NCBI GenBank assembly: GCA_018662405.1
Contig: JABJGE010000042.1
Location: 2,108 to 66,107, forward strand
Reading direction: 5' to 3'
DNA: 64,000 nt
Source of the DNA: Campylobacteraceae bacterium
GTDB taxonomy: Bacteria > Campylobacterota > Campylobacteria > Campylobacterales > Arcobacteraceae
Position 1 is the first letter of the stretch, and every line of letters starts with the position of its first letter. A model generated the notes under the pieces. The model worked only from the letters and a program-made list of their open reading frames with translations, was not told where the DNA came from and searched no databases. The position numbers and the translations under genes are program-made. Of the stretch, positions 35,660 to 45,220 are shown one piece after another.

Positions 35660-37096
35660 ATGAAAAATATAATAGTAAAAAATACTTATCTTGATAGCTT
35701 TGATAAGCTATTTTATAATTTAGAAAAAATATCACCTTTAAATGATGCAAAATTATTAAGTGCTAATCAAAGTGCAGCTAATTTAATAGATTTAAATTTA
35801 GAAAATATATCAAATGATGATATGAAAAAATTGTTAAATGGTGAAATATTATTGAATAATTCAAAACCATATTCAATGGCATATGCAGGACATCAGTTTG
35901 GTTCAAGAGTTCCACAATTAGGTGATGGACGGGCTATGAATATTGGAACTATAAATGGATGGCATTTACAATTAAAAGGAAGTGGACAAACAAAATATTC
36001 AAGGCAAGGTGATGGACGAGCAGTTTTAAGGTCATCAATAAGAGAATATTTAATGAGTGAAGCAATGCATGGATTAGGAATACCAACAACTAGAGCATTA
36101 GCGATAAATACATCTAAGCATGGAGTTCCAAGAGAATGGAAAACTGAAAAAGGTGCTGTAGTATTAAGACTGTCACAATCATGGATAAGAATAGGTTCAT
36201 TTGAATTTTTTTATTATAACGGCGGAAAAGAATCTGTACAAAAGTTAGCTAATTATGTAATCGAGGAAAACTATCCTTATTTAAAAGATAGTGAAACAAA
36301 ATATAAAGATTTTTATTTTGAGTTAGTTGATAAAAGTGCAAAAATGGTATCTCTATGGCAAAGTGTAGGCTTTATGCACGGTGTATTGAATACAGATAAT
36401 ACATCTGTAATTGGAGTTACTTTGGATTATGGACCATTTGCATTTATGGATAAATTTGAAAAGCATAATATCTGTAATCATACAGATAGCCAAGGTCGAT
36501 ATTCTTATGCAAATCAACCATCAATTATTCAGTGGAATTTAAAAGTTTTAGCAGTAACACTTCAAGGTATTGTAGCAAAAGAAGAACTAGATGAAATAAA
36601 TGAAATGTTTATGTTTTTATATACAAAATATTATTATGAGCAAATGTCAAAAAAACTAGGATTAGTTGATGGCTCAAATACTAATTCACATAAATTGCTT
36701 GATGGACTACTAGATATATTAGAAGAATGTGAGATTGACTATACAAACTTTTTCTATATCTTAAGTATATATACTTCAAAAGATGAGGTATTAGAACTTA
36801 CATTAAAAAAAGATATTTTAAATACTTGGTTTGATAAATATAATAATATTTGTCAAGAACAAGACATATCAAAAGAAGAAAGACAAGAACAAATGTCAAA
36901 AATAAACCCAAAATATGTTCTTAAAAATTATATGATTCAAGAAGCAATTGATAAGGCAAATGATGATGACTTTTCATTAGTTGAAGATTTATTAAAAGTT
37001 GCTCAAAATCCTTATAAAAATTATGAGGCTATGAATAAATATGTGAAAAATACACCAAGTGAACTTTCAAATTTAAGACTTTCTTGCTCGTCTTAA
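35660..37096 (+). CDS. selO: protein adenylyltransferase SelO (YdiU family)
   Basis: 478 aa. AYAGHQFG...LGDGRA...LKGSGQT pattern of SelO pseudokinases. Confidence 0.85.
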   Translation: MKNIIVKNTYLDSFDKLFYNLEKISPLNDAKLLSANQSAANLIDLNLENISNDDMKKLLNGEILLNNSKPYSMAYAGHQFGSRVPQLGDGRAMNIGTINGWHLQLKGSGQTKYSRQGDGRAVLRSSIREYLMSEAMHGLGIPTTRALAINTSKHGVPREWKTEKGAVVLRLSQSWIRIGSFEFFYYNGGKESVQKLANYVIEENYPYLKDSETKYKDFYFELVDKSAKMVSLWQSVGFMHGVLNTDNTSVIGVTLDYGPFAFMDKFEKHNICNHTDSQGRYSYANQPSIIQWNLKVLAVTLQGIVAKEELDEINEMFMFLYTKYYYEQMSKKLGLVDGSNTNSHKLLDGLLDILEECEIDYTNFFYILSIYTSKDEVLELTLKKDILNTWFDKYNNICQEQDISKEERQEQMSKINPKYVLKNYMIQEAIDKANDDDFSLVEDLLKVAQNPYKNYEAMNKYVKNTPSELSNLRLSCSS

Positions 37097-38181
37097 ACTA
37101 ATATGATATTTTGTCCAAAAGGAGTTTCAACTTCTTTTGAACTTAATGCCCAAATAATATCATACATAGGCTCTTCTTTTGGGAATGTTCCAAATCCATC
37201 TGTAAAATATATCATTAAATTAATTTGAGATATATTCTCATCGATATATATAAATGTATTTTCAAAATTAGTTCCACCGCCACCTTTTAAATTATAAGAT
37301 ATTTCATCTCCTGGATATAAAACATGATGCTCTTGAACCTTTGCATCAGCTATTAAAAGATCTATTTCATAGTTTGAAAAACTATTCATAATAGCATTTA
37401 CTTCAGATAAAAATTTTGACAAGAGACTAGGCTCAATAGATCCAGAACTATCAATAGCAATTATAATTTTTACTTTCTCGCCACTTAAAGATGGTAATGC
37501 AATACCTTGTGAAATATATCGTTTATTTGGTGGACTAAGTCTATAATCAAACTTTACAGAATTTTCAATGATTGTATAAAGTTCATCTTCCCAAGTGATT
37601 GTATTTGAATTAATATCTGGAACTAGCATCTCAATTCCTAGAGGTAAATCACCATGAAGTTTTGCTTTTGATAATAACTGTTGATTTATTTGTTCAATTG
37701 GATCGGTGTCATAATCATTAACTTCTGGCATTTTTTCATATTTTATTTTATCAACTTTTTGAGGAGTATGCTTATCTAAATCAATCTCACCTTCTAAAAT
37801 TGTATAAATAGACTCTGCACTATGTCCATCAAATAAATGATCATAATTTAATCCATCTGGCATATCTAATCCATTGTTTACAAGTAAAGAATTTATAGCA
37901 TAATCTTGTGCCATTTTCCAAAGCCAATCCATACGACCTTCTTTTCTAGAAGCTGAACCAAAAGCTTGATGCATTGCCGAATTAGTAAGAATAAATGATA
38001 ATTGTTCATCTGAAATATACTCAATATAGTCATCATTGTATTCGAAAAAATTTGGATTTGTTTCGAAAGTTTTTAAATCTTCATTTAGTTTTGACTTTAA
38101 AGATGATGCAATAGAACCAAAGTATGGCTGATCTAAAAGTAGTCTAGCTTTTACTTGCTCTATTCGTGTTTCAATAGTCAT
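37093..38181 (-). CDS. VWA-domain protein with DUF2201-like N-terminal region (MIDAS intact, HExxH absent)
   Basis: 362 aa. MIDAS IIIAIDSSGSI and downstream YFTDG. The N-terminal region resembles the putative-peptidase domain of DUF2201 proteins but reads AMHQAFGS (no HExxH). Confidence 0.6.
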   Translation of the reverse strand: MTIETRIEQVKARLLLDQPYFGSIASSLKSKLNEDLKTFETNPNFFEYNDDYIEYISDEQLSFILTNSAMHQAFGSASRKEGRMDWLWKMAQDYAINSLLVNNGLDMPDGLNYDHLFDGHSAESIYTILEGEIDLDKHTPQKVDKIKYEKMPEVNDYDTDPIEQINQQLLSKAKLHGDLPLGIEMLVPDINSNTITWEDELYTIIENSVKFDYRLSPPNKRYISQGIALPSLSGEKVKIIIAIDSSGSIEPSLLSKFLSEVNAIMNSFSNYEIDLLIADAKVQEHHVLYPGDEISYNLKGGGGTNFENTFIYIDENISQINLMIYFTDGFGTFPKEEPMYDIIWALSSKEVETPFGQNIILV

Positions 38182-38182
38182 G

Positions 38183-39187
38183 TTATTGTATTAAAAACCT
38201 ATGTGCATCTATCCAGTCTTTCCACATTGGATTTGATTCCACTTCTACACCTTCTTCTTGTAAATCTTTCATTAGAAGCATAGAAAATTCACCACTTAAT
38301 GTAATGGCAAATGATATAACATTAGATATTTGTTCTTTAGTAGCATTTTGTTTTAATGCATAAACAATACCAATTGTAAGTGCATACATAGCAGAATTTT
38401 TAGTAGGTAAATCTACTTCTATACCATTACAAATATCTTCAATACTAGGTAAGTCGTTCATGATTTTACAATAGTTTAAAAATTCAGTAGCACTATCTTT
38501 TCCAATAGCTCCAGAGATTACATTTTCAAGTAATTCTAACTCTAGTTCCGATTTTAGTACATCATCTACATACTTCCAAGATCTTGGAGTCGCAAATGAT
38601 TTTTCATTTGATTTTGGATCAAAAGTAAATAAATTTGATGGTTTATATGAAAGGTATGAGATGATTCTTTTATCTATATTTACAGAATATGCCCATTGTT
38701 TCCATGATGTAAAATCAATATCAAAATACATATGTATAAATCTATTTGCTAGTGGAGTTGGCATACGATATGTCACCCCTCTATCATTTTCATAATTTCC
38801 AGCTGCTATGATTGAATAATTCTTAGGTAAAGTATATTCACCAATTTTTCTATCTAAGATTAGTTGATATGCAGCAGCTTGAATAGTTGGTGGTGCTGAA
38901 TTTATTTCATCTAAAAATAATATACCAAACTCTTCACTATTGCTGTTTGGTAAAAATTCTGGTTTTGCCCAAATAGCAGTTTTTGTAGTTTGATCAAAAA
39001 ATGGAACACCCCTTAAATCTGTAGGATCAAGAAGTGAAAGTCTTAAATCTATAAATTCCATATTTGATTCTTGTGCAATTTGTGAGATTAAAGATGATTT
39101 TCCAACACCTGGGCTTCCCCAGATAAATGTTGGTATTTGTGATTTAATAAGAGGTATAAGTGATTTTTTTAGATCAATTGAATTCAT
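38183..39187 (-). CDS. MoxR-like AAA+ ATPase (AAA_5 type)
   Basis: 334 aa. Walker A GSPGVGKSS and Walker B ILFLDEIN. Single AAA module plus a helical C-terminal domain. Confidence 0.75.
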   Translation of the reverse strand: MNSIDLKKSLIPLIKSQIPTFIWGSPGVGKSSLISQIAQESNMEFIDLRLSLLDPTDLRGVPFFDQTTKTAIWAKPEFLPNSNSEEFGILFLDEINSAPPTIQAAAYQLILDRKIGEYTLPKNYSIIAAGNYENDRGVTYRMPTPLANRFIHMYFDIDFTSWKQWAYSVNIDKRIISYLSYKPSNLFTFDPKSNEKSFATPRSWKYVDDVLKSELELELLENVISGAIGKDSATEFLNYCKIMNDLPSIEDICNGIEVDLPTKNSAMYALTIGIVYALKQNATKEQISNVISFAITLSGEFSMLLMKDLQEEGVEVESNPMWKDWIDAHRFLIQ

Positions 39188-40541
39188 TGATTATTCCTAG
39201 TGTTTTTCTTGAAAATGCTCTATAAGTTTCATTTTCTGCTATTAATGATTTAAGACTATTATCTAGTTGTAATTGCATTAAAATATGTATTGGTGTTGCT
39301 ATATTTGTACTTAACGCTGTGTTAATATTAAAGTCATTTTTTAAATATAGTTTTTCTATTATTTCATTTGGTATTTGTATATTATATCCCAAAGATATAT
39401 CTACATCTAAATCATTTAAATTTAATAATTCTTGATATATTTTTGCATTAAGTGATTCATTGTGAGCTATTGTAATATTATATATTTTATTATTTAGATT
39501 TAAAAATTTAGAAATTTGTTTACTTGGGCATTGATTATTTTTCAATAAATTTATATTTGAATTTTCTACATCAAATTCAAAAAGCTTATTTATCATAGTT
39601 TGGTTTAGTGAATTATTTGATGATAAATATACAATATCAATATCTTGATTTAATATCTTAATAATAGTTTTAAAAATATCATCATCAAGAGTAGTATATT
39701 GTAGTATATTTTGTGAATATTTATCATTTGAAATATATTTTTTAATATCATCAGTTGGTAAATTATTTGATTTTATTAATGCTAAAATTATTTGTTCATT
39801 TTCATTCTCTAATAGCTTATGTACAATAGTTTTAGAAATACTTGTATTTTGTGCTAAAAATATTAGTTCCCTTAAATTCCCATTTGTTAATATTTGCATT
39901 TGTACTATTTTAGAATTGTTTGGATTTAGAGCAACCACTTCTTTTAATGTTAGTGGTTGGTCTTCTTTTGCATTTTTATCACTAATTTTATAGTTTGGCA
40001 TATTATAAATTACATCAAGAAGCTTTTCTTCAGTTGTTTCAAGTGCTGTATAATATACTCCAATAGGAGAGTGTTGGATATTATGATTTGTCTTGGTTAG
40101 TGTACAAAATCTAGTTGTAATAGCAGTTGATACATCACGATTGTCATCAGTATCATAAATGTCTGTATTTTCCCAATCATAAAATTTTAATAGTTTTATA
40201 AATGTTTCATTTGTAAAGTAGTGATTGTTTAAAAGCTTAATAAGCCTTTCTTTGTCTTTAGACATTTTAATAGCAATAATAACAGAATCACTATCTAAAT
40301 TAGCAGAAAACTGATGCTCTAATGTTTCAATTGAAACCACTTCAATACCATCTTTTGATAATGCATATATTTTATCTTCTAAATGTATTGGAGTAAACTT
40401 ACCTTCAATAATGATATCCGCTTCATCTAATGTTTCAACCATAGTAGCACTATTTTGTAAAAAGTATGTTTCTAACTCTTCTTTATCAATCTTGTCTCCA
40501 CGACCCATAAAACAAATTTTTTTATTATTCATATTTAACAT
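39174..40541 (-). CDS. BRCT-like N-terminal domain protein with leucine-rich-variant (LRV/HEAT-like) repeats
   Basis: About 455 aa from ATG 40541 (or 40532). KICFMGRGDKIDKEELETYF...EADIIIEG...LSKDGIEVVSIETLEHQF resembles BRCT. The C-terminal half repeats A/LxxNxS-type motifs (ALNPNNS, LAQNTSIS, LSSNNSLN, IAHNESLN, LSTNIATP, IAENETY). Confidence 0.5.
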   Translation of the reverse strand: MLNMNNKKICFMGRGDKIDKEELETYFLQNSATMVETLDEADIIIEGKFTPIHLEDKIYALSKDGIEVVSIETLEHQFSANLDSDSVIIAIKMSKDKERLIKLLNNHYFTNETFIKLLKFYDWENTDIYDTDDNRDVSTAITTRFCTLTKTNHNIQHSPIGVYYTALETTEEKLLDVIYNMPNYKISDKNAKEDQPLTLKEVVALNPNNSKIVQMQILTNGNLRELIFLAQNTSISKTIVHKLLENENEQIILALIKSNNLPTDDIKKYISNDKYSQNILQYTTLDDDIFKTIIKILNQDIDIVYLSSNNSLNQTMINKLFEFDVENSNINLLKNNQCPSKQISKFLNLNNKIYNITIAHNESLNAKIYQELLNLNDLDVDISLGYNIQIPNEIIEKLYLKNDFNINTALSTNIATPIHILMQLQLDNSLKSLIAENETYRAFSRKTLGIINEFN

Positions 40542-40575
40542 AAAAAGATAATATCTAATGTTTTTTAAATATATG

Positions 40576-42729
40576 TTAACTTGGTGAATTAAATTTAATT
40601 GTAAATATAGCACCTCTATTAGTATTTGATGCTTCTAATGATGCATTAAACTTTTCAATAATTTTATAAGACATGTATAGACCTATTCCTGTACCAGCAG
40701 ATTTAAACTTTGTAGTGAAATAAGGATCAAATATTTTAGGTAATATATCATCTGATATTCCTCCTCCATTATCTTCTATAGTAAGTATATTTTGATTATT
40801 TATCGTTTTAGTAGATATGAATACTTCTCTATTTTCTATATGCTGTTCTATAAAATTGTCATTTGCATTTTGTAATATTGTAATTAATACTTGATTTAAA
40901 TAACCTATATTTCCAGATACCTCAAAGTCTGAATATATATTTAGATTAATATTTATTTTGTATTTTCTAGAATTAAATTTAAAAATATTTAATGTCATAT
41001 TTAAGACTTTAGATATTAATAATATATCAGAGTGATTATTGGTATTATTAAATGATGAAAAATCAGAAATTGTATTATTTAAATAATTTGTGTTTGTGAT
41101 AATTTGATCTAACATATCTAGAATTTCGTTTTTATTTATACTAGCAGTATTTTGTACTTGAAATATTGATTCTAACGAGCTAGTAAGTAATAATATTACA
41201 CTTAAAGGTTGTCTATATTGATGAGTAATGTTTTCCATCATTTCACCAATAATTGCTTGCCTATATTGAATATGTATTAATTTATCTTTCTCTTTTATAT
41301 CTTCAAATTGTTTTACAACTTGATTTGCAAGATCATTTTGTAATTTCTTTAGCTCAGTAATGTCTGTTTGAAATCCAACCATCCTAATTGGCTTATTATT
41401 TGAGTCAAATTGAGCTTTTCCTCTATTTAAAATCCATACCCAATTTCCATTCTTATGTAGTAATCTGTAGACACATTCAAATATATCAGTTTTGCCATTA
41501 ATATGATCTCTAAGTTTGCCTTTAGCATTTTTCCTATCTTTATATGGAATTCTTGATGTCCATTCACTAAAATGATTTTTAATTTCATAATCTTTATATC
41601 CAATCATATATTTCCATCTTGGCGAATAGAATATTTCATTTGTCTTTAGATCCCAGTCCCAAAGGCCATCACTTGAACCTTCAATTGCGAGTTGAAATCT
41701 TGATTCTTCTTCGAAAGCTATATTTTGAAAATATATGTTAGATATATATTGTCTATACAATAAAAATAATATTAGTATAATAACAAAAGTTGAAATAGAT
41801 ACTTTAAAATAAAAATCATTTTTGAAAATTTCAATGGATTTAGCTTCTTGATGTGCTACATATAATGCTTGAATATTATTTTTAATATTTCTAATAACAA
41901 TAAATGTTACAGCATCTTTAACTTTATGATCATATATACTAAATGAATCAACATTAGATTTTAGTCTTTTTTTAACATCAAACTTAAATTCATTGTTGTT
42001 ATGTTTTAGTTGATGTCTAGTGATACCAATATCTAATTTTGTTCTCGTATCATAGTAATAATCTTTAAAAAATAGATGTTGTTCAAAATATTTTTTATTA
42101 TCTTTGGATAATGTATTATCTATTGAACTTTTTTTAGCCAAGTAAGCAATATCTGTTTTTAATGTATGATTTAAATTATTGATCATATCATTTAATCTAA
42201 TAGATAATTCAACACATCCTAAATATTCATTATTTTTATCAAATAGCGGAAATATATATCTCATCGCATTTGCATATACGCCTTGCTCATAGCCTTTAAA
42301 TGATTTTTTATTTTTATTTACGTAATCTATAGTATGCCGTATATTATTTAAATTATCACCAAACTTTTTTGGATTATGAAATCTTAAAAATGATGTTGAA
42401 TCTGGAAGATGAAAATGAAGAATGTTTAAATTATCTTTTTTGAGAATTTTATATGATTCTGTAAGATATTTATATAATGTATCTCTATTTTTATTTTTAA
42501 ATAATTTTTTAACTTCAGACGTATTAATATAAGCATTAAAATAACCTAAGGCTAATGCTTCTTTTGAAGCTAATAATATTCTATATTGATCTTTAATATT
42601 ATGAGTAGAATGTTCTAAATAGTTTTCTATATTTTGGTTTTTTAAAATATTAAAATAGTTAAAATTTATAAAAGATAAAACTAAAAAGATAATTATAGTA
42701 AGTGTTAATATATTACTTTTATTATTGAT
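40576..42729 (-). CDS. orphan sensor histidine kinase: TM, Cache-like domain, TM, PAS, HisKA, HATPase
   Basis: PAS (GLWDWDLKTNEIFYSPRW...), H-box ITHQYRQPLSV, and G-boxes DNGGGI and GTGIGL. The track ORF starts at ATG 42264, but the frame is open to 42738. That upstream segment encodes a TM plus a Cache-like sensor behind AGGA-N5-ATC (42727-42729). Confidence 0.7.
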   Translation of the reverse strand: MNNKSNILTLTIIIFLVLSFINFNYFNILKNQNIENYLEHSTHNIKDQYRILLASKEALALGYFNAYINTSEVKKLFKNKNRDTLYKYLTESYKILKKDNLNILHFHLPDSTSFLRFHNPKKFGDNLNNIRHTIDYVNKNKKSFKGYEQGVYANAMRYIFPLFDKNNEYLGCVELSIRLNDMINNLNHTLKTDIAYLAKKSSIDNTLSKDNKKYFEQHLFFKDYYYDTRTKLDIGITRHQLKHNNNEFKFDVKKRLKSNVDSFSIYDHKVKDAVTFIVIRNIKNNIQALYVAHQEAKSIEIFKNDFYFKVSISTFVIILILFLLYRQYISNIYFQNIAFEEESRFQLAIEGSSDGLWDWDLKTNEIFYSPRWKYMIGYKDYEIKNHFSEWTSRIPYKDRKNAKGKLRDHINGKTDIFECVYRLLHKNGNWVWILNRGKAQFDSNNKPIRMVGFQTDITELKKLQNDLANQVVKQFEDIKEKDKLIHIQYRQAIIGEMMENITHQYRQPLSVILLLTSSLESIFQVQNTASINKNEILDMLDQIITNTNYLNNTISDFSSFNNTNNHSDILLISKVLNMTLNIFKFNSRKYKININLNIYSDFEVSGNIGYLNQVLITILQNANDNFIEQHIENREVFISTKTINNQNILTIEDNGGGISDDILPKIFDPYFTTKFKSAGTGIGLYMSYKIIEKFNASLEASNTNRGAIFTIKFNSPS

Positions 42730-42828
42730 ACTTATCCTTTATTCTAAAATAATTATGTGAAATATTATATACCAAATAAACTTGAAAACATATCTAGATA
42801 ATTAAGTTATATTTGATACAATATAATC

Positions 42829-43341
42829 ATGAAAACATTATTATTAATAGCCATATTACTGAATGGGGCACTAGCTTCTAATTTGGTTGACTCAATTTCA
42901 ATGACAATTGGAAAGAGTAAGGAAGGTCATTCTTCTTCTAAAATTTCTTTACAACACAATTTTGATAGTATACTTTATACAACTGATTCTGGATATATTG
43001 ATGGTTTTTATGAACTTTCTTTTAGTAATTGGGGTACTTCAAATAATGTGAAAGTTGTATCATTTTCTCCTGTATTAATGTATAGTTTTGATACTGACTT
43101 TAAAAATATAACACCGTATATTCAATTTGGAATAGGTGGATGCTATCTTGCAGATTCTGTGGTTGGAGGAAAAGATGTATCTACACATTTTCAATTTGAA
43201 GATAGGATAGGTATTGGATTTAAAACAGAAGACTATAGGATTGATCTAAATTTTTTTCATTACTCGAATGCTGATATTGAAAAGCCAAATCCTGGTGTAG
43301 ATTTTTATATGTTAACATTTGTATATCCATTAGACTATTAA
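42829..43341 (+). CDS. lipid A deacylase-like acyloxyacyl hydrolase (PagL family OM protein)
   Basis: 170 aa. Signal peptide, small beta-barrel, and the HYSNA (His-x-Ser-Asn) catalytic motif. Confidence 0.65.
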   Translation: MKTLLLIAILLNGALASNLVDSISMTIGKSKEGHSSSKISLQHNFDSILYTTDSGYIDGFYELSFSNWGTSNNVKVVSFSPVLMYSFDTDFKNITPYIQFGIGGCYLADSVVGGKDVSTHFQFEDRIGIGFKTEDYRIDLNFFHYSNADIEKPNPGVDFYMLTFVYPLDY

Positions 43342-43499
43342 ATATAATATTAGAAGAAGGACTTAATATTAAAAAGCAAAATAATGAAAAATCAAAAGAT
43401 GATTTACTAAAAGAATATTTTGAGAATTTAAATAAACAAGATGAACCAGAACCAAAAAAAGAACCAGTAAGGATTAGGAATATTATTTTTCCTAATGTT

Positions 43500-43697
43500 A
43501 TGATGATGAATAAAAAACAATTTATAATAGCTTTTGGAACAATATTAGTTATTTGTATTTTATTATTGATCTTTGTTGATACTGATTCTGCAATCCCTGA
43601 GTTTGATAAATATCATGAAGATAATAAGCATTTAATTGAAAGAAGTGATTTTTATGATGATGGTGCTAGTCTGAAAAAAGATAGTAAAGAAGAATAA
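43500..43697 (+). CDS. small signal-anchored protein, unknown function
   Basis: 65 aa. MMMNKKQFIIAFGTILVICILLLIF anchor followed by an acidic tail. Confidence 0.4.
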   Translation: MMMNKKQFIIAFGTILVICILLLIFVDTDSAIPEFDKYHEDNKHLIERSDFYDDGASLKKDSKEE

Positions 43698-43734
43698 TTA
43701 ATATTTTCTAATACTTTCTTTTCATAGTAGTTAA

Positions 43735-44142
43735 TTAATCAGTAAGAAATTTTTCTTGAAACTCTTTTAAACTATAAAGTGTTGGTTCTACTGAATGTTC
43801 TGAATTTATTATAATGGTATTAGTATCTGATGCACTTATAGAATGTGCGTATTTACCTTTGTGTTTGTGAACAGACTGCATGGAACAATGAAGAAATTCT
43901 TCTTTTGATAACTCTTGTTTAATGATGTCTAACTCTTCTTGTTCTATAGCTGATTCGTTTGCGATACATTCTTGTTTATCAAATGGTTTTATTAACTTGA
44001 ATATAATATCCATCTCCATCGTTTCTTTATTTTTTACTTTGCCAGATACAATCACAAAATCATCCATAGTGTCATTTTCATAATCATCTTGAGTTAAAGC
44101 ACCTCTACCATAGTATATTGTTAATAGTTCCCATTTACTCAT
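43735..44142 (-). CDS. hypothetical acidic cytoplasmic protein
   Basis: 135-aa ORF with no recognisable motif. Confidence 0.4.
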   Translation of the reverse strand: MSKWELLTIYYGRGALTQDDYENDTMDDFVIVSGKVKNKETMEMDIIFKLIKPFDKQECIANESAIEQEELDIIKQELSKEEFLHCSMQSVHKHKGKYAHSISASDTNTIIINSEHSVEPTLYSLKEFQEKFLTD

Positions 44143-44268
44143 ATTTTAACCTTTTTAAATTTCATAATTGTATCTTATTGTCAATTATACTTTTCAATTT
44201 CTAAGTAGGTTTATTTTGCTAGATAGATAAATATCTTTAATTAAAGGATAAAAAAGAGATAATATTTA

Positions 44269-44676
44269 ATGGAAAAAATTATACTAATATCTTTATTGCT
44301 AGTATTAACACTAAATGCAAATAGCTTTAAAAAAATAAAAGAGTTTGAGAATATACAAAAAAATAAAAAAGTTTTTGTGATCTTATCTATGGAGTATTGT
44401 GGATGGTGTAAAAAACAAAAAAATGAAGTAAATAAATATATAGTAAATAAATATGATTATATGGAATATATAATTATTGATAAAAGTTCTAATGCTTTTA
44501 GAAAATTGGTTTCTACTGGTAAGTTTGATACTAGATTTTTCCCTTCAAGTTCGATAATAATCATAGATGATAAAAATGAAGTTAATGATATATTTGAGTT
44601 TGTAGGTTATCAATCAGCTGATAATATAATAGAAATATTAAATGATAAAGAGATAATGGAAATATATGATAATTGA
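44269..44676 (+). CDS. periplasmic thioredoxin-fold protein
   Basis: 135 aa. Signal peptide and CGWC redox motif. Confidence 0.65.
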   Translation: MEKIILISLLLVLTLNANSFKKIKEFENIQKNKKVFVILSMEYCGWCKKQKNEVNKYIVNKYDYMEYIIIDKSSNAFRKLVSTGKFDTRFFPSSSIIIIDDKNEVNDIFEFVGYQSADNIIEILNDKEIMEIYDN

Positions 44677-44735
44677 GAAATACATTTATTGTGTAAAGAT
44701 TAATTTGCAGTGATGGTTTACCCATCTACTACAGT

Positions 44736-45040: not shown

Positions 45041-45117
45041 TGGTTGCGGGAGATGGATTTGAACCATCGACCTACGGGTTATGAGCCCGTCGAGCTACCA
45101 TGCTGCTCTATCCCGCG
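45041..45117 (-). tRNA. initiator tRNA-fMet (CAT)
   Basis: CGCGGGATAGAGCAGCATGGTAGCTCGACGGGCTCATAACCCGTAGGTCGATGGTTCAAATCCATCTCCCGCAACCA. Has the C1:A72 mismatch, GGG/CCC in the anticodon stem, and an encoded CCA. Confidence 0.95.
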
Positions 45118-45145
45118 ATATAAAAATATTTTTGCACTTACACAA

Positions 45146-45220
45146 TGGATGGGGTACCAGGATTCGAACCTGGGAATGTCAGCACCAAAAGCTGATGCCT
45201 TACCGCTTGGCGATACCCCA
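45146..45220 (-). tRNA. tRNA-Gln (TTG)
   Basis: TGGGGTATCGCCAAGCGGTAAGGCATCAGCTTTTGGTGCTGACATTCCCAGGTTCGAATCCTGGTACCCCATCCA. Anticodon loop TTTTGGT. Confidence 0.93.

Follow-up and report, generated by a model that had tools for sequence, protein, structure and literature searches.

In the window, which is the whole 64,000-nucleotide (nt) stretch of contig JABJGE010000042.1 (assembly GCA_018662405.1, from a Campylobacteraceae bacterium) that was analyzed, three minus-strand open reading frames (ORFs) of 455, 334, and 362 codons lie between selO (35660-37096, plus strand) and a histidine kinase gene (40576-42264, minus strand). Their products are referred to here as protein 1 (the 455-residue BRCT/repeat protein), the ATPase (334 residues), and the VWA protein (362 residues), and the coordinates of the genes and of their features are listed in Table 1. 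The trio looks like one conserved, chromosomally inherited module of the Campylobacterota, which is housekeeping-like rather than a defense system. The close packing of the genes, as described in the original prediction, is borne out by direct reading of the sequence. The 14-nt overlap between gene 1 and the ATPase gene, ATGAATTCAATTGA (39174-39187), contains the stop codon of protein 1 (TGA, 39174-39176) and the ATG of the ATPase gene at 39187, with AGGA being located 7 nt upstream of this ATG, and the TAA stop codon of the ATPase gene is followed, after a single base (38182), by the ATG of the VWA gene. The start of protein 1 is assigned to the ATG at 40541, from where 35 homologues align; the mechanically delimited ORF extends to a GTG at 40613.

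Domain structure of the three proteins

A BRCT domain, LRV repeats, a MoxR-type AAA+ ATPase, and a DUF2201-type VWA domain with a metal ion-dependent adhesion site (MIDAS) had been proposed from the sequence of the window, and these four calls hold when the results of Pfam, AlphaFold/Foldseek, and the homologue profiles are considered. The motifs that had been quoted (GSPGVGKSS, ILFLDEIN, DSSGS, and FTDG) are all present.

As judged from its sequence, gene 2 encodes a MoxR-clade AAA+ ATPase that is apparently active. It is matched by the Pfam models AAA_3 (37.6 bits, 2.5e-9; cut-off 27) and AAA_5 (23.3 bits, 7e-5; cut-off 22), and its best matches among the PDB sequences are the AAA modules of midasin and the MoxR structure 2r44. 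The Walker A and Walker B motifs are intact, and they are conserved in the phage relatives. Over its full length, the ATPase matches phrog_1297 (1e-101), and its identity is 39% to phiFa_34 of a Thermus phage and 30% to gp24 of phage N4. It stays below the cut-off of the Pfam model bpMoxR (11 bits versus 27), and at E <= 1 neither the ATPase nor the VWA protein matches the NCBIfam models of RavA/ViaA, CbbQ/CbbO, NorQ/NorD, or CoxD/CoxE.

The VWA protein consists of two Pfam domains, DUF2201_N (residues 4-232; 3.3e-22, 79.8 bits, cut-off 23.2) and DUF2201 (residues 239-360; 2.8e-19, 69.9 bits, cut-off 26.4), and it matches phrog_1314 over residues 3-359 (3e-67). In the C-terminal domain, the DxSxS motif is complemented by the other MIDAS residues, T304 and D328, with FTDG being found at residues 326-329. 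The residues D244, S246, G247, S248, T304, and D328 show no variation when the VWA protein is aligned with its phage homologues, and a simple pattern match finds all three MIDAS motifs in 103 of the 120 closest Campylobacterota homologues. For the N-terminal domain, a weak alignment is obtained with selecase MJ1213, a minigluzincin, in which the NSAMH sequence lies opposite the HELLH motif of selecase, and NSAMH also aligns with the HELWH and HELLH motifs of N4 gp25 and phiFa_30. The zincin motif HExxH is kept in the phage and plasmid VWA proteins (as HELWH, HELLH, HEVWH, or HEVLH), whereas TN[SAC]xMH is present at this position in ~95% of the same 120 homologues. The distant clade members at loci L033 and L047 are likewise without HExxH, and in the VWA protein of the window the downstream histidine is gone too (GSASR versus LxHExR). 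It is because of the loss of HExxH in ~95% of the 120 homologues, as well as in L033 and L047, that the peptidase domain is considered to be probably catalytically dead across the whole clade. The statement of the original prediction that no effector motif is visible is upheld by the searches of Pfam, NCBIfam, and PADLOC, whereas its statement that there is no protease has to be amended, as the VWA protein begins with a degenerate zincin-like domain. From these alignments, gene 3 is best described as encoding the MIDAS-competent VWA partner of the ATPase, carrying a pseudo-zincin domain.

Protein 1 itself has no match in Pfam, NCBIfam, PADLOC, or PHROG, and a profile of 18 of its homologues finds nothing among the PDB sequences, even at E = 10. 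Its AlphaFold model, calculated with 36 homologues in the alignment, has a predicted local distance difference test score (pLDDT) of 90 and a predicted template modeling score (pTM) of 0.76, and it is built up from three parts. Residues 1-82 are modeled as a beta-alpha-beta-beta-alpha-beta-alpha fold with a pLDDT of 78-89. For this part, Foldseek finds the BRCT domain of RFC1 (2ebu; probability 1.0, with a root-mean-square deviation, rmsd, of 1.9 A over 72 columns), as well as those of LigA, PARP1, Rev1, LigIV, and Sir4, and nearly all matches are BRCT domains, having probabilities of 0.95-1.0 and rmsd values of 1.9-3.4 A over ~70 columns at E-values of just 0.003-0.5. The protein 1 of the window has no Pfam BRCT match even at E = 1, and a full-length homologue (P0166) reaches 27 bits (cut-off 21.3); NCBI names two protein 1 homologues "BRCT domain-containing protein". 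At position 13 there is almost always a glycine, with Arg or Lys after it, and the residue before it is variable (M/S/T/A/E).

The fold is the one known from LigA, as the original prediction had it, but a reading as a DNA-binding domain is not favored by the properties of the domain. It is acidic (isoelectric point, pI, of 4.5, with 8 Lys and Arg residues versus 16 Asp and Glu residues), as is protein 1 as a whole (pI 5.0). In an alignment made by eye, which is not a tool result, the acidic stretch DEAD appears to occupy the position of the phosphate-binding lysine of the LigA and RFC1 BRCT domains.

The helical middle domain is the best conserved part of protein 1, with a mean column conservation of 0.60 as compared with 0.46 elsewhere. 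Residues R99, N106, Y121, R135, and R144 are invariant and D132, D136, F145, N152, H153, and N154 nearly so; these include residues of a conserved acidic loop, DTDDNRDV (129-136), and of an NHN motif (152-154). No fold match is found for this domain, and when a separate model of residues 1-218 is used as the Foldseek query, the BRCT part alone is matched. In the C-terminal part, the repeats keep a 26-residue register with h-h-x-N-x-x-h motifs, and the model shows a solenoid of 22 helices. The LRV repeats of the original prediction are therefore retained, whereas their number, given there as at least six, is about 9-10, each of 26 residues. Foldseek matches the solenoid with the LRV protein of Azotobacter vinelandii (1lrv, probability 1.0) and with ARM/HEAT proteins, and in the BFVD database it matches phage "leucine rich repeat variant" proteins at E 3e-8; protein 1 differs from the Azotobacter protein in having no Fe-S cluster domain. 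Among the homologues P0124, P0131, and P0148, the Pfam models LRV (30.5-32.8 bits, cut-off 21.6) and LRV_2 (41.2 bits, cut-off 27) are matched.

There are 129 close homologues of protein 1, all from Campylobacterota wherever the source names the organism, and distant full-length relatives (23-27% identity) are found in Hydrogenimonas, in a Sulfurimonas metagenome-assembled genome (MAG), and in Nitratifractor. Protein 1 was not found in a scan of the viral contigs of IMG/VR. The combination of a BRCT domain, a helical domain, and LRV repeats in one chain was seen just within the protein 1 family, no systematic search for this architecture elsewhere having been made. At locus L050 (4250-4987), a complete protein 1 of 245 residues is encoded, which has the BRCT and middle domains only and whose gene ends 7 nt before the ATPase gene. 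In the search of the representative genomes, many proteins of ~240 residues correspond to the N-terminal half only, and others of ~170-195 residues to the C-terminal half only. It may be that some of these half-length homologues are real split or shortened genes and not contig-end fragments.

Table 1. Positions of the three genes and of their domains and motifs in the window
Feature	Position	Strand	Basis
Protein 1 (455 residues), BRCT + conserved helical domain + LRV solenoid	39174..40541	-	ORF; start from homologue alignment; AlphaFold
BRCT domain, residues 1-82	40296..40541	-	AlphaFold model, Foldseek; Pfam BRCT via homologue
Conserved helical middle domain, residues 83-198	39948..40295	-	Column conservation; model
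About 9-10 LRV-type repeats of 26 residues, residues 199-447	39201..39947	-	Register, model, Foldseek
MoxR-type AAA+ ATPase (334 residues), phage N4 gp24 type	38183..39187	-	Pfam, phrog_1297
Walker A, GSPGVGKSS, residues 24-32	39092..39118	-	Translation
Walker B, ILFLDEIN, residues 89-96	38900..38923	-	Translation
Putative VWA adaptor (362 residues), zincin-like DUF2201_N + DUF2201 VWA	37093..38181	-	Pfam, phrog_1314
Degenerate zincin motif NSAMH at the HExxH position, residues 67-71	37969..37983	-	Alignments
MIDAS DxSxS motif, DSSGS, residues 244-248	37438..37452	-	Alignment with phage homologues

Conservation of the trio and its relatives on phages and plasmids

The loci that were compared comprise 41 from species-representative genomes together with others that were fetched by protein look-up. 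The expectation that the trio genes would be conserved neighbors agrees with what is seen in this set, in which ~29 of the 40 Campylobacterota loci that could be assessed keep the gene order, including loci where the identity of protein 1 has fallen to 25%. The order is found in the Arcobacteraceae, in Hydrogenimonas, and in other Campylobacterales, and it is kept between families at 25-50% identity. The distance from gene 1 to the ATPase gene is at most 20 nt, or the genes overlap, in 25 loci, and it is 99-146 nt in four loci. The ATPase and VWA genes are adjacent in 24 of the 31 loci holding both (six of these 24 depend on an ATG-only start call). The flanking genes differ in every locus examined. 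In genome OY782822, gene 1 stands alone with the ATPase-VWA pair being located ~33 kb away, such that all three genes are present in this genome. Each of the three genes has more than 100 homologues (more than 100 clusters), with intact ORFs and a constant architecture, and because of these numbers and the conserved order the trio is not a chance arrangement.

When the pairwise identity matrices of the three proteins are compared over 23 genomes, correlation coefficients (r) of 0.95-0.96 are obtained, and of 0.86-0.89 within the Arcobacteraceae. The correlation between protein 1 and the ATPase is as strong as that between the ATPase and the VWA protein. This correlated divergence fits co-inheritance of the three genes as one unit.

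At locus L002 (8508-12372), from a Campylobacterota MAG, four genes whose products look like membrane or coiled-coil proteins lie between the ATPase and VWA genes; they have no PADLOC match, and one of the four proteins is weakly MotA/ExbB-like (E 0.007). An apparent 827-residue fusion of protein 1 with the ATPase on a Hydrogenimonas contig (L034, ~1850-1965) was discarded as an assembly artifact, as a run of N joins the frames.

The ATPase-VWA pair is widespread in phages and plasmids. With tblastn, 523 phage records are seen to contain homologues of the VWA protein, and such homologues are also present on 106 plasmids. The phage carriers include N4 (where gp24, an AAA protein, is encoded beside gp25), N4-like phages, jumbo phages (PA5oct and Bacillus phage G), and the Thermus phage phiFa. 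In the N4-like phages, the pair is surrounded by middle genes and by genes for nucleotide metabolism and replication, and in phiFa an RNase H gene is located between the ATPase and VWA genes. A "MoxR - metallopeptidase-vWA" pair has been noted previously in group 2.2 jumbo phages, for which a role in virion assembly was proposed without a test (Iyer et al. 2021, PMC7824862). As to the annotation of these proteins, phrog_1314 and RefSeq phage records (for example, N4 gp25 at L043 4980-6122) label the zincin-VWA protein as "HNH endonuclease" or "homing endonuclease". This label looks like a propagated annotation error, being supported by neither domain.

On plasmids of Burkholderia, Ralstonia, and Rhodovastum, the genes form operons in the order AAA protein, a protein of ~300 residues, and VWA protein (L051 3092-7194, L052 3918-7209, and L053 3952-7182). 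These operons adjoin type IV secretion system, toprim/DUF3991, or ParB genes, and the operon of the Burkholderia plasmid additionally has a short gene of the beta-clamp-like type after the AAA gene. The ~300-residue protein has no Pfam or PHROG match. It was considered as a counterpart of protein 1 and rejected, as profile-profile comparison with hhalign (probability 0.3%) shows the two to be unrelated.

By homology, the ATPase-VWA pair is a member of this phage and plasmid family of the N4 gp24/gp25 type, which has been described only in annotations and in comparative remarks. Both proteins are homologous over their full length to their phage counterparts (30-39% identity for the ATPase and 26-29% for the VWA protein), the order of ATPase and then VWA is the same, and the two-domain architecture of the VWA protein and its intact MIDAS are shared. 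The trio differs from the phage and plasmid type in the NSAMH sequence at the HExxH position, in its BRCT/LRV partner, which was not found in phages, and in being chromosomal and vertically conserved. The plasmid operons are also similar to the trio in having a homologous ATPase (27% identity, E 6e-42) and a VWA protein and in being composed of three components, one of which is a lineage-specific extra protein, but on the plasmids this extra protein is encoded between the other two, it is not related to protein 1, and HExxH is intact.

A couple of a MoxR protein and a vWA protein with a system-specific third protein is also characteristic of the ternary conflict systems described by Kaur et al. 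2020 (PMC7159879). In those systems, the third component is VMAP, iSTAND, a double FtsH AAA+ protein, or a vWA-fused beta-propeller, none of which is present in the trio, and the MoxR subfamily is a different one, as indicated by the bpMoxR score, as is the phyletic pattern. Their effector domains are variable and are carried by the vWA protein, at its C-terminal end, or by the third protein, whereas the vWA protein of the trio has an N-terminal pseudo-zincin domain and no effector is detected with Pfam, NCBIfam, or PADLOC. RavA-ViaA, CbbQ-CbbO, NorQ-NorD, CoxD-CoxE, and midasin/Rea1 resemble the trio in that an AAA+ protein of the MoxR/midasin clade is coupled to a MIDAS-bearing VWA domain, and the probable mode of action, in which an acidic residue is gripped and pulled, would be shared as well. 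The trio is set apart from the characterized MoxR-VWA chaperones by the NCBIfam results, by having no conserved client gene, and by its VWA architecture, and a BRCT/LRV partner is a feature of the trio that is not known for any of these five systems. Judged by these comparisons, the trio belongs neither to the conflict systems of Kaur et al. nor to the RavA, CbbQ, NorQ, and CoxD families.

The original prediction could not assign the combination to any characterized system, and in this respect it stands: there is no match to such a system, and no paper that combines BRCT and MoxR was found in the literature searched. The ATPase-VWA pair as such is not an orphan, as it falls into the phrog_1297/phrog_1314 family of phages and plasmids. 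Two points are new with respect to the literature searched, these being that an entire clade of cellular organisms has lost the zincin motif and that a BRCT/LRV protein is present as a fixed third subunit.

A proposed non-proteolytic remodeling machine and the alternatives

With moderate confidence, the trio is interpreted as a lineage-specific, non-proteolytic MoxR-VWA remodeling machine in which protein 1 is an adaptor or a client; of the two options put forward in the original prediction, that of a client-specific remodeling machine fits the evidence. The analogy with midasin-Rsa4/Ytm1, CbbQ-CbbO, and NorQ-NorD suggests that the ATPase would assemble into a hexameric ring and exert a pull on the VWA adaptor, and that, as in midasin, CbbQO, and NorQD (reviewed in PMC7159879), the MIDAS of the VWA protein would hold its ligand by an acidic residue. 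The best candidate for this residue would be D132 or D136 in the acidic loop of the middle domain of protein 1, as this domain is conserved more strongly than the rest of the protein, has the conserved acidic loop, and is retained in the 245-residue variant. ATP hydrolysis may then cause the BRCT/LRV scaffold to adopt another conformation or to exchange its partners. It is possible that protein 1 is the client itself, or that it recruits the real client or localizes the machine by means of the surfaces of its BRCT domain and repeats. The action would be non-proteolytic, with the former peptidase groove at most holding a peptide, and the task of the module would be one of housekeeping assembly or remodeling and not of immunity. 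As for its origin, the module most likely descends from a domesticated mobile-element pair of the MoxR-zincin-VWA type.

Several observations weigh against this interpretation. In six loci, kb-scale insertions of ordinary genes separate gene 1 from the ATPase gene, and in five loci there is no ATPase gene within 6 kb of gene 1. The inserted genes look like those of a short-chain dehydrogenase, MarR, a chemoreceptor, MetE, and MATE (from their translations, which were read and not profile-tested), and they include a RhuM-family gene (Pfam); PADLOC finds no match in the unknown cassettes that are inserted between the trio genes of relatives. A correlation of the identities would be expected for any three vertically inherited genes. 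That protein 1 touches the ATPase or the VWA protein is suggested by synteny alone, the assignment of D132/D136 as the MIDAS ligand is a guess, and no client gene is found to be conserved beside the trio in the loci examined. As for the phage relatives, N4 gp24 and gp25 are both listed as being of unknown function (PMC2784036), and no functional study on DUF2201, COG3864, PF13203, or N4 gp24/gp25 was found in the literature searched.

Among the alternatives, a chaperone for the maturation of, or cofactor insertion into, one metalloenzyme or respiratory complex, with protein 1 as a docking scaffold, is considered unlikely. Maturation is the experimentally established role of most of the MoxR-VWA pairs that have been studied (NorQ-NorD, CoxD-CoxE, CbbQ-CbbO, and RavA-ViaA; PMC7159879), the hosts are chemolithotrophic Campylobacterota that are rich in such enzymes, and in one genome the ATPase-VWA pair is located beside hypF and NiFe-hydrogenase genes. 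Against this, no enzyme gene is conserved as a neighbor, the flanks being different in each locus examined, the NCBIfam models of precisely these pairs are not matched, and the nearest relatives occur on phages and plasmids, where a metalloenzyme client of the host is less obvious. Slightly less probable again is the other option of the original prediction, a defense or conflict module in which the BRCT/LRV protein would sense an invader and the MoxR-VWA couple would act as a thresholding switch, as in the systems of Kaur et al. 2020. The three-part MoxR-vWA architecture with its lineage-specific third protein is reminiscent of those systems (PMC7159879), phages and plasmids frequently carry relatives of the pair, the flanking genes change from one genome to another, and there are weak PADLOC matches of the AAA protein (DolB, 3.5e-5, and PDC-S01, 5e-5). 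These matches are generic, however, and PADLOC finds nothing for protein 1 or the VWA protein; no effector domain is present in the three proteins, the sole enzyme-like domain is inactivated, the third component is not VMAP, iSTAND, FtsH, or a beta-propeller, and bpMoxR is below its cut-off (11 versus 27). The distribution points in the same direction, as the trio diverges together with the taxonomy down to 25% identity and is not sporadic, its neighbors here are housekeeping genes with no integrase or other defense genes among them, it tolerates splitting by ordinary genes, and its hosts are not the multicellular lineages in which the systems of Kaur et al. are enriched (PMC7159879). The defense option is not supported by these data.

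Equally improbable, in our view, is an accessory role in DNA replication or repair, in which the BRCT domain would bring the remodeler to nicks, DNA ends, or the replisome for the eviction or loading of proteins. Such a role is suggested by the nearest BRCT structures, which are those of RFC1, LigA, PARP1, Rev1, and LigIV, by the location of the pair among replication genes in the N4-like phages and around an RNase H gene in phiFa, and by the beta-clamp-like gene in the Burkholderia plasmid operon and the toprim/ParB genes nearby on another plasmid. It is disfavored by the acidity of the BRCT domain (pI 4.5) and of protein 1 (pI 5.0) and by the Asp and Glu residues of the DEAD stretch where, in the by-eye alignment that is not a tool result, the presumed phosphate-binding lysine of LigA and RFC1 would stand. 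Moreover, no replication or repair gene is conserved as a neighbor in Campylobacterota, and the third protein of the plasmids is not related to protein 1 (hhalign 0.3%). By far the least probable is that the trio is a decaying remnant of an integrated phage or plasmid without a cellular function. The ATPase and the VWA protein do match phage families best, and the peptidase motif is lost, but all three ORFs are intact in more than 100 clusters each, the MIDAS and Walker motifs are conserved, the gene order is kept between families at 25-50% identity, and neither further phage genes nor an integrase or repeats are seen in the vicinity, with the G+C content being like that of the surroundings.

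A further possibility, to which we likewise give a low probability, is that a domesticated mobile-element engine has been rewired with a BRCT/LRV sensor, such that it serves either effector-less immunity or exclusion (for example, by stripping or trapping the replication proteins of an invader) or remodeling associated with the replisome or with repair. A study of a remodeler of the latter kind would also reveal the role of the N4 gp24/gp25-type pair in hundreds of phages and plasmids.

Returning to the remodeling machine with protein 1 as its adaptor or client, few AAA+ machines are as widespread and yet as poorly understood as the MoxR-VWA couples, and a fixed, lineage-specific third subunit with a candidate MIDAS ligand makes the grip-and-pull model testable by mutagenesis. 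The natural pseudo-peptidase version separates a remodeling role from a proteolytic role, as the phage and plasmid versions keep an active-looking zincin domain, and a cellular, genetically tractable setting, as provided by cultured Poseidonibacter and Arcobacter isolates such as Poseidonibacter lekithochrous and Arcobacter sp. YIC-464, could illuminate gp24 and gp25 of phage N4, which are conserved in the N4-like phages. The gain would be modest if the trio is just another client-specific chaperone, since a MoxR-VWA couple with a specific partner is the expected principle.

Surroundings of the trio in the window

The G+C content of the trio (0.23-0.29) resembles that of the surrounding DNA, and the surrounding genes are housekeeping genes (purF, dapB, trxB, alaS, selO, pagL, and ribBA). 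No integrase, other phage genes, repeats, or other defense genes are found near the trio. The placement between selO and a PagL-like gene that had been described is correct for selO, whereas the immediate neighbor on the other side, directly upstream of gene 1 and separated from it by a 34-nt gap (40542-40575), is the histidine kinase gene, with PAS, HisKA, and HATPase domains. The kinase was considered as a fourth member of the module and rejected, as it is not conserved as a neighbor in other genomes. It is encoded on the same strand as gene 1 with no terminator-like site in between, and the two genes may be co-transcribed here. On the other side, selO and the VWA gene converge, their 3' ends overlapping by 4 nt (37093-37096), and no terminator-like hairpin is seen between or near them. 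The promoter scan, in which 63 promoter-like sites are found versus 54.5 expected, is uninformative in this AT-rich DNA, as is the terminator scan, in which no terminator-like site is found within the region.

The neighborhood stretch with the lowest G+C content (0.21-0.24) is located at 42300-44700; it contains several small ORFs that match no family, in addition to the PagL-like gene and a gene for a thioredoxin-like protein. The Rfam search finds only two tRNAs, 4.5 kb away from the trio; these are tRNA-Met and tRNA-Gln, which follow this low-G+C stretch at 45041-45220.

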